Program-made: the position numbers and the translations under genes
The notes under the pieces: model-generated
Told to the model about the DNA's origin: nothing
The model's database searches: none
Seen by the model: the letters and a program-made list of their open reading frames with translations, nothing else
Assembly (NCBI RefSeq): GCF_051903065.1
Contig: NZ_CP178438.1
Length of the DNA: 64,000 bases
Source: Escherichia coli
GTDB lineage: Bacteria > Pseudomonadota > Gammaproteobacteria > Enterobacterales > Enterobacteriaceae
Direction: 5' to 3' (one strand)
In this document: positions 13,105 to 13,665 of the stretch, piece after piece
Numbering within the stretch: position 1 is the first letter of the stretch
Layout: each line of letters opens with the position of its first letter

Positions 13105-13665
13105 GAAGCCTGATAAGACGCGGTCAGCGTCGCATCAGGTATTTGGCACCGTTGCCGGATGCGCGAGAATTTGTAGGCCTGATAAGACGCGCAAGCGTCG
13201 CATCAGGCAGTCGGCACTGTTGCCGGATGCGGCGTAAACGCCTTATCCGGCCTACGGAGGGTGCGGGAATTTGTAGGCCTGATAAGACGCGCAAGCGTCG
13301 CATCAGGCATCTGGCACCGTTGCCGGATGCGGCGTAAACGCCTTATCCGGCCTACGGAGGGTGCGGGAATTTGTAGGCCTGATAAGACGCGCGAGCGTCG
13401 CATCAGGCATCAGGCATCTGGCACTGTTGCCGGATGCGGCGTAAACGCCTTATCCGGCCTACGGAGGGTGCGGGAATTTGTAGGCCTGATAAGACGCGCA
13501 AGCGTCGCATCAGGCAGTCGGCACCGTTGCCGGATGCGGCGTAAACGCCTTATCCGGCCTACGGATGGTGCGGGAATTTGTAGGCCTGATAAGACGCGCG
13601 AGCGTCGCATCAGGCATCTGGCACCGTTGCCGGATGCGGCGTAAACGCCTTATCCGGCTTACCGA
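13105..13665. repeat. Large BIME array of about 11 alternating REP units with roughly 100-bp periodicity
   Basis: Units gcctgataagacgcgcaagcgtcgcatcaggc alternate with gccggatgcggcgtaaacgccttatccggcctac; unit starts near 13261, 13361, 13468 and 13568, one carrying a 7-bp caggcat insertion. Confidence 0.9.

Follow-up and report, generated by a model that had tools for sequence, protein, structure and literature searches.

In the stretch of Escherichia coli DNA analysed here (the window, 64,000 nucleotides), the gene yjdM (phnA) and the gene yjdN (phnB) lie on the minus strand and are separated by an intergenic region of 634 bp that holds a tandem array of alternating inverted REP units. According to the list of open reading frames and the RefSeq annotation of an identical record, the upstream gene yjdM occupies positions 13677 to 14012 and the downstream gene yjdN positions 12599 to 13042; phnC is found farther downstream of yjdN. 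The array spans 13105 to 13662 with a period of 100 bp, and its transcribed strand is the minus strand. Reading of the sequence shows that the first REP follows the yjdM stop codon (TGA, 13679-13677) after a spacer of only 14 nt (13663-13676). The sole good promoter-like match upstream in a consensus scan is a candidate sigma-70 promoter of yjdM on the minus strand at 14080-14108 (CCGACA-17-TATAAT, 10/12). From 13043 to 13676 the minus strand shows no hairpin followed by a U-run, which rules out an intrinsic terminator between the two genes. The promoter-like match before yjdM, together with the lack of a terminator, agrees with the published yjdM-REP325-yjdN transcription unit. A second sigma-70-like match, TTGGCA-16-GAGAAT (9/12), lies on the plus strand at 13143-13170, where its -10 hexamer is created by the deletion junction of a degenerate repeat unit. 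It would direct transcription antisense to yjdM and yjdN, but the match is weak, no better than chance would produce in this region.

The wider neighbourhood contains several other recognizable elements. The phnE gene is annotated as intact (780 nt) in 23CRST027, a genome that matches exactly, at approximately window positions 9752-10531 on the minus strand, whereas K-12 MG1655 carries the phnE1 pseudogene; the strain of the window probably has a functional phosphonate transporter. The window further includes the enterobacterial sRNA STnc630 (RF02052, 181.8 bits) at 19330-19495 on the plus strand, a tRNA at 49839-49911 on the minus strand and, at its extreme end, a Guanidine-II (mini-ykkC) riboswitch aptamer (49.3 bits) at 63926-63972 on the plus strand. 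In strain 3502 (NZ_CM168000.1) a transposase of the IS1A family is annotated in the phnC-yjdN-yjdM-crfC stretch, and the locus is thereby extended to about 3.2 kb. REPs are known targets of insertion sequences.

The array is built from two types of palindromic element. Motif parsing resolves six Y REPs, five intact Z2 REPs and one Z2 stub, or 11 intact REPs and one remnant, giving a unit count of 5.6. The Y REPs are located at 13108 (extending to 13140, with a diverged loop, GGTCAG), 13177, 13277, 13377, 13484 and 13584, the intact Z2 REPs at 13222, 13322, 13429, 13529 and 13629, and the stub at approximately 13153-13162. On the plus strand the Y REP reads GTAG-GCCTGATAAGACGCGCAAGCGTCGCATCAGGC, the Y motif being GCCTGATAAGACGCG..AGCGTCGCATCAGGC, and the Z2 motif is GCCGGATGCGGCGTAAACGCCTTATCCGGCCTAC. 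Y is inverted relative to Z2 and the orientations alternate along the array. TRF detects the repeat at 13163-13662 (period 100, 4.9 copies, 92% matches, score 856) with a nested 7-bp micro-repeat, GCATCAG, of 3.4 copies at 13400-13423, and a gapless repeat search returns start-to-start steps of 100, 107, 100 and 100. A sequence-only reading of the same DNA had described an alternating inverted tandem BIME array between yjdN and yjdM, with about 11 REP units, a period of roughly 100 bp over some 560 bp and a 7-bp insertion in one unit, and this description is accurate in each respect. REP clusters elsewhere in the window hold one to three REPs, making the array between yjdM and yjdN the largest by far.

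Two constant linkers join the REPs. The head-to-head (S) linker measures 13 nt, with a single unit at 20 nt, and the linker that joins units tail to tail measures 17 nt. The latter, recognized on the minus strand by composition and junction search, lies at 13256-13272 with further copies at 13356-13372, 13463-13479 and 13563-13579, so that four intact copies are present compared to five in K-12; the junction between units likewise occurs four times in the array against zero expected from shuffles. On the RNA this linker reads AAAUUCCCGCACCCUCC, with nine C and one G (C:G 9:1) and a C-rich portion CCCGCACCCUCC, and it stays unpaired in the folds of the individual units.

Rfam family RF02564, naRNA4 (CssrE), has a covariance model of 77 nt and a gathering score of 59.5 bits. 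Five units of the array match the full 77-nt model on the minus strand above the gathering score, at 86.5 to 111 bits. The unit nearest yjdM, which is transcribed first (13583-13659), comprises a Z2 hairpin, the S linker and a Y hairpin in a two-hairpin fold and scores 99.9 bits. The second unit on the RNA (13483-13559) has the top naRNA4 score of 111 bits and a fold of -42.8 kcal/mol (z = -4.83). The third (13376-13459, 86.5 bits) is 84 nt long as a result of a 7-bp duplication of GCATCAG in its S linker (13400-13413); folding indicates that this insertion lengthens the linker and leaves both hairpins undisturbed. Units four (13276-13352) and five (13176-13252) score 104.2 and 108.9 bits. The last unit on the RNA, which is the first by position (13107-13162), is degenerate. 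About 30 bp are deleted, so that the diverged Y is followed by a Z2 stub of some 10 nt fused directly to the inter-unit linker; the Y hairpin alone folds, and the match to RF02564 (13107-13156) falls below gathering at 36.5 bits. Each intact unit on the minus strand thus presents a Z2 hairpin and then a Y hairpin, with fold z-scores of -4.6 to -5.4. The RNA of the whole array, resolved by TRF, motif parsing and RNA folding at 13105-13662, folds at -291 kcal/mol compared to -211 +/- 7 for shuffles (z = -11.3); composition and fold give it a C/G ratio of 1.26 with most of its length paired. Arginine-rich, repeat-derived open reading frames of up to 127 aa cross the array, for example at 13261-13644 on the plus strand, and in some RefSeq records the locus bears a 'hypothetical protein' annotation. 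Both the frames and the annotations are almost certainly spurious.

The element is already known, the array being an allele of REP325, the BIME-2 of the E. coli yjdM-yjdN region; this assignment by sequence comparison follows from the match of both the flanks and the unit sequences to K-12 MG1655. REP325 was described between yjdM (phnA) and yjdN (phnB) as six homologous repeats, each consisting of Y and Z2 palindromes with a short linker, with identical 'U' motifs between the repeats (Qian et al. 2015, PMC4550694). In that account its transcription comes from the yjdM side and it is the source of naRNA1-6. The array of the window occupies the same location, between yjdM and yjdN and upstream of phnC. 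It shares with the K-12 allele the locus, the flanking genes, the strand, the same or almost the same Y and Z2 sequences, the S and inter-unit linkers, the 14 nt to the yjdM stop and the 64-65 nt to the yjdN start. Where K-12 MG1655 has six intact 100-bp units, 12 REPs and an intergenic region of 657 bp, the window has five intact units and one truncated unit, 11 REPs and 634 bp. It further differs in the 7-bp duplication in one S linker, the diverged loop of the first Y (GGTCAG) and the loop of the Z2 nearest yjdM, which is TAAA in the window and CGAG in K-12. The count of five intact repeats plus a truncated one, as opposed to six, is an allelic difference and not the mark of a different element. 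The sequence-only reading had missed the identity of the array with this named and studied REP325/naRNA4 element.

The class assignment follows the BIME classification of Gilson, Bachellier and Hofnung as summarised in Ton-Hoang et al. 2012 (PMC3333891). According to that source, BIME-2 consist of Y and Z2 with a short S linker and occur in tandem multi-copy arrays whose number varies between strains, while BIME-1 contain Z1, are single-copy and have an IHF site in a long L linker. The array contains Y-type and Z2-type REPs in alternating inverted orientation with a short S linker and a flanking linker of the s/l/r type, and its tandem copies vary among strains (5.6 units here, 1-9 elsewhere). 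It shows no substantive difference from the BIME-2 family, in which it lies at the long end of the size range. RF02564 also matches a lone Y/Z2 BIME-2 pair at 10550-10630 on the plus strand (69.1 bits), situated in the phnD-phnE gap antisense to phn transcription. Since this pair is unrelated to the array, a match to the family identifies a BIME-2 unit of the general kind and not a dedicated sRNA gene.

The length of the array varies widely within the species. The two flanks, joined as one query, were compared with 5,426 complete E. coli genomes, a collection that over-represents laboratory strains, and the span between them was read at evenly spaced rows of the ranking. This provided 58 informative genomes in a first sample and 59 in a second, 117 in total. 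A single unit (insert of 79-83 bp) is present in 38 genomes of the first sample and 30 of the second, two units (~180 bp) in 6 and 5, three (~281 bp) in 0 and 2, four (~380 bp) in 3 and 6, and five (~480 bp) in 5 and 4. The window allele, with an insert of 558 bp, appears once in each sample. Six units (~580 bp) occur in 5 and 9 genomes, while seven (681 bp) and nine units (883 bp) are each represented by one genome, both in the second sample. Thus, a single Y-Z2 pair is all that 68 of the 117 sampled genomes (58%) contain, and in 18 the array is at least as long as that of the window, many of these 18 genomes being K-12 laboratory derivatives. In a separate search, a 50-nt query covering the junction between units matches 2,253 of the 5,426 genomes (41.5%). 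At most that share can have two or more units, in agreement with the frequency of the single pair. K-12-type genomes match this junction in seven places, of which REP325 can account for only five; one or two further BIME-2 loci must therefore carry an identical tail-to-tail linker.

Parsed alleles extend the range further. Combat13F7 has seven Y and seven Z2 (14 REPs), and E105, the longest found, has nine of each (18 REPs) in an intergenic region of 959 bp. The array of the window is therefore long for the species, shorter than the K-12 allele and about 60% of the longest. The sequence-only reading had called it unusually large, which holds in relation to most strains but not to K-12, with 12 REPs, or to E105. 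The flanks are constant in the window and in 14 other parsed alleles, with 64-65 nt from the yjdN start to the first Y and 14 nt from the last Z2 to the yjdM stop. Across the parsed and sampled alleles the length variation is wholly internal, proceeding in steps of 100-bp units from one to nine units (2 to 18 REPs), and all examined alleles retain at least one Y-Z2 pair. Fixed flanks combined with whole-unit steps form the pattern expected of unequal recombination or slippage, and the suggestion that the array is a hotspot for copy-number change agrees with this strain comparison. Variation of BIME-2 copy number from strain to strain is a documented property of the class (Ton-Hoang et al. 2012, PMC3333891).

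The window allele combines two uncommon features, the degenerate first unit and the 107-bp unit. The junction of the degenerate unit is found in 6 of the 5,426 genomes, in arrays with two Y (2018-05-2CC), three Y (PS10-3 and one other) or six Y (the window type, three genomes), indicating repeated changes in copy number inside one rare lineage. In 75 genomes at least 80% of the 107-bp unit, with its GCATCAG duplication, is covered, and this variant sits in arrays of three units (A16) and five units (strain 48) in which the first unit is intact. In K-12 substr. GM4792 (NZ_CP011342.2) the array has three units compared to six in MG1655 and other K-12 records, which is either a real contraction on a laboratory timescale or an assembly collapse. 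Species-representative genomes gave zero exact matches to the junction between units, a result of little weight, as the search recovers exact matches only and the E. coli representative may itself hold a one-unit allele. No paper with yjdM or yjdN alongside VNTR or MLVA terms was found in the literature.

Function is assigned to the window allele because it is orthologous to REP325 of K-12. The evidence for function is that of a preprint in which the K-12 allele was studied, in part by plasmid overexpression (10.64898/2026.03.23.713779). In that study, deletion of REP325 in K-12 altered growth and lowered the yjdM/yjdN RNA ratio from ~35 to ~1, as yjdN rose about 10-fold and yjdM fell about 3-fold. 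On plasmids that lacked the array and in which yjdN followed, yjdM RNA was reduced more than 160-fold. The RNA of the array was a ladder of hairpin-terminated species rather than a full-length transcript, and the endogenous REP325 RNA was very low, at ~1-2 copies per cell. With bicyclomycin, read-through by transcription rose from 23% to 39% when all 12 hairpins of the array were present, and fragments of two or four hairpins showed no such rise; an in vitro Rho-binding screen did not recover REP325. The authors conclude that REP325 is a dual element, a stabiliser and a partial Rho-dependent attenuator (10.64898/2026.03.23.713779). For the K-12 ortholog, then, the RNA-stabilising role that the sequence-only reading had attributed to the array is experimental.

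By analogy with K-12, the best explanation for the window allele, and one that we regard as likely, is that it would serve as a 3′-UTR regulator that stabilises yjdM mRNA and attenuates read-through into yjdN. The array would be co-transcribed with yjdM from the minus strand, and its stack of hairpins would block 3′-to-5′ decay and so stabilise the yjdM mRNA. It would also attenuate read-through into yjdN, partly via Rho, for a net effect of a high yjdM:yjdN ratio. The C-rich and G-poor linkers between the units (9 C : 1 G) may act as single-stranded Rho-loading patches. If so, attenuation should scale with unit number, and this would explain why Rho dependence is seen only in long arrays. Copy number would change when the 100-bp units recombine unequally or slip during replication, which would explain alleles of one to nine units with invariant flank junctions. 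The cited limit for REP-dependent translational effects is roughly 15 nt, and the 14-nt gap between the yjdM stop and the first REP falls within it. The one-unit state of most strains counts against the need for a long array.

Espeli et al. are said to have described attenuation at BIMEs, and the malE-malF REP is an example of a REP that stabilises mRNA. Like such stabilisers and the Rho-dependent BIME attenuators, the array of the window lies in a 3′-UTR between co-directional genes, has stable hairpins and lacks a U-tract. It differs from them in a hairpin count well above the customary one or two. Rho dependence as published for REP325 is limited to the full array.

Other explanations have been offered for arrays of this kind. 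The sequence-only reading proposed that the array binds IHF, as expected of a BIME of the RIB or RIP type, but this is very improbable. IHF binds BIME-1 elements at their L linker, and the array itself provides no support for such binding. BIME-1 and RIB/RIP elements resemble the array in that the Y REP is inverted relative to the Z-type REP; their Z1, single copy, long L linker and IHF site are all absent from it, as it consists of Y and Z2 joined by linkers of 13 nt and 17 nt. The IHF consensus WATCAANNNNTTR has no match in a consensus scan of 13043-13676, and its three matches in the 64-kb window, at 11743, 24747 and 54078, equal the chance expectation. Without an L linker or an IHF consensus in 13043-13676, identity as a BIME-1 or RIB is ruled out, and the claim of IHF binding falls with it. 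Regular periodicity may also suggest a CRISPR-like array or an assembly artefact, readings whose chance of being correct is negligible. The units are palindromic REPs that alternate in orientation and occur at other loci, and a CRISPR array is ruled out since the segments between REPs are the same two constant linkers instead of unique spacers, as the sequence-only reading had also argued. It had named assembly collapse or artefact as a point to check; an artefact is ruled out by a 1501-bp stretch that is 100% identical in three independent complete genomes, and thousands of genomes carry related alleles. A more elaborate proposal holds that the units are processed to naRNAs of ~77 nt that, together with HU, bridge cruciform REP DNA and condense the chromosome (Qian et al. 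2015). The units do match Rfam naRNA4 at 86-111 bits, and the original work reported HU binding, decondensed nucleoids in a REP325 deletion, rescue by plasmid-borne naRNA4 and bridging in AFM (Qian et al. 2015, PMC4550694). The later preprint, on which the senior author of the 2015 study also appears, detected no stable HU-naRNA4-cruciform complex, no change in the nucleoid on deletion or overexpression, no REP-REP contacts in Hi-C and only ~1-2 RNA copies per cell, and its authors consider the HU-naRNA4 model of nucleoid compaction not robust (10.64898/2026.03.23.713779). The presence of only one unit in most E. coli genomes is a poor fit to a core architectural role, and the same Rfam family also matches the generic pair in the phnD-phnE gap, so that this function is improbable for the array.

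A role at the DNA level is compatible with one in RNA. The array may be a strong, transcription-independent site of gyrase binding and cleavage, or may insulate the yjdM and phn units topologically from each other; for BIME-2 as a class gyrase binding, which the sequence-only reading had also named, is plausible, and we regard the stronger proposal for this array as rather unlikely. Gyrase cleavage sites are over-represented in BIME-2, chiefly in Y REPs, of which the window array has six, and the signal increases with rifampicin (Sutormin et al. 2018). Cleavage is confined to a subset of these elements, however, with sucC-sucB and tldD-yhdP as the named examples. In the supplementary text of Sutormin et al. 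no entry for yjdM, yjdN, phnA or phnB was found, and deletion of REP325 left no supercoiling-related expression signature (10.64898/2026.03.23.713779). The array may alternatively be a selfish or neutral repeat whose length drifts without any selected function, a view that we hold to be less likely than not. Alleles range from one to nine units without obvious constraint, and the minimum is the commonest state. TnpA-REP cuts BIMEs and recombines them in vitro, the number of BIME-2 copies is known to differ between strains (Ton-Hoang et al. 2012, PMC3333891), and REP325 is a predicted RAYT-associated REPIN (RAREFAN, K-12). Deletion of REP325 in K-12 nevertheless changes growth and the expression of both neighbours, and all examined alleles hold at least one Y-Z2 pair at an unchanged 14-nt spacing from the yjdM stop. 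Neutral drift is compatible with a functional basal unit, and this alternative bears chiefly on the additional copies.

As the "model REP" of E. coli, REP325 has a name and a record of publications from 2012 to 2026, and the array is of little value as a discovery. Annotation pipelines leave such an array blank or call spurious ORFs in it, and its recognition guards against reading it as CRISPR or as genes. As a VNTR the locus is clean, with steps of 100 bp, and it offers a natural allelic series for testing the terminator-and-stabiliser model, including a test of whether Rho dependence grows as units are added. In published work REPs have already been presented as tunable dials. Extending the regulatory model in which the array stabilises yjdM mRNA and attenuates read-through into yjdN, each extra 100-bp unit would add two hairpins and one C-rich single-stranded patch. 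The length of the array could then be a heritable and rapidly mutable rheostat, with one to nine units grading both Rho-dependent attenuation and the protection of yjdM mRNA, a speculative model that we would not at present expect to hold. If true, the rheostat would tune the yjdM:yjdN ratio between lineages of E. coli without any change in promoter or coding sequence.
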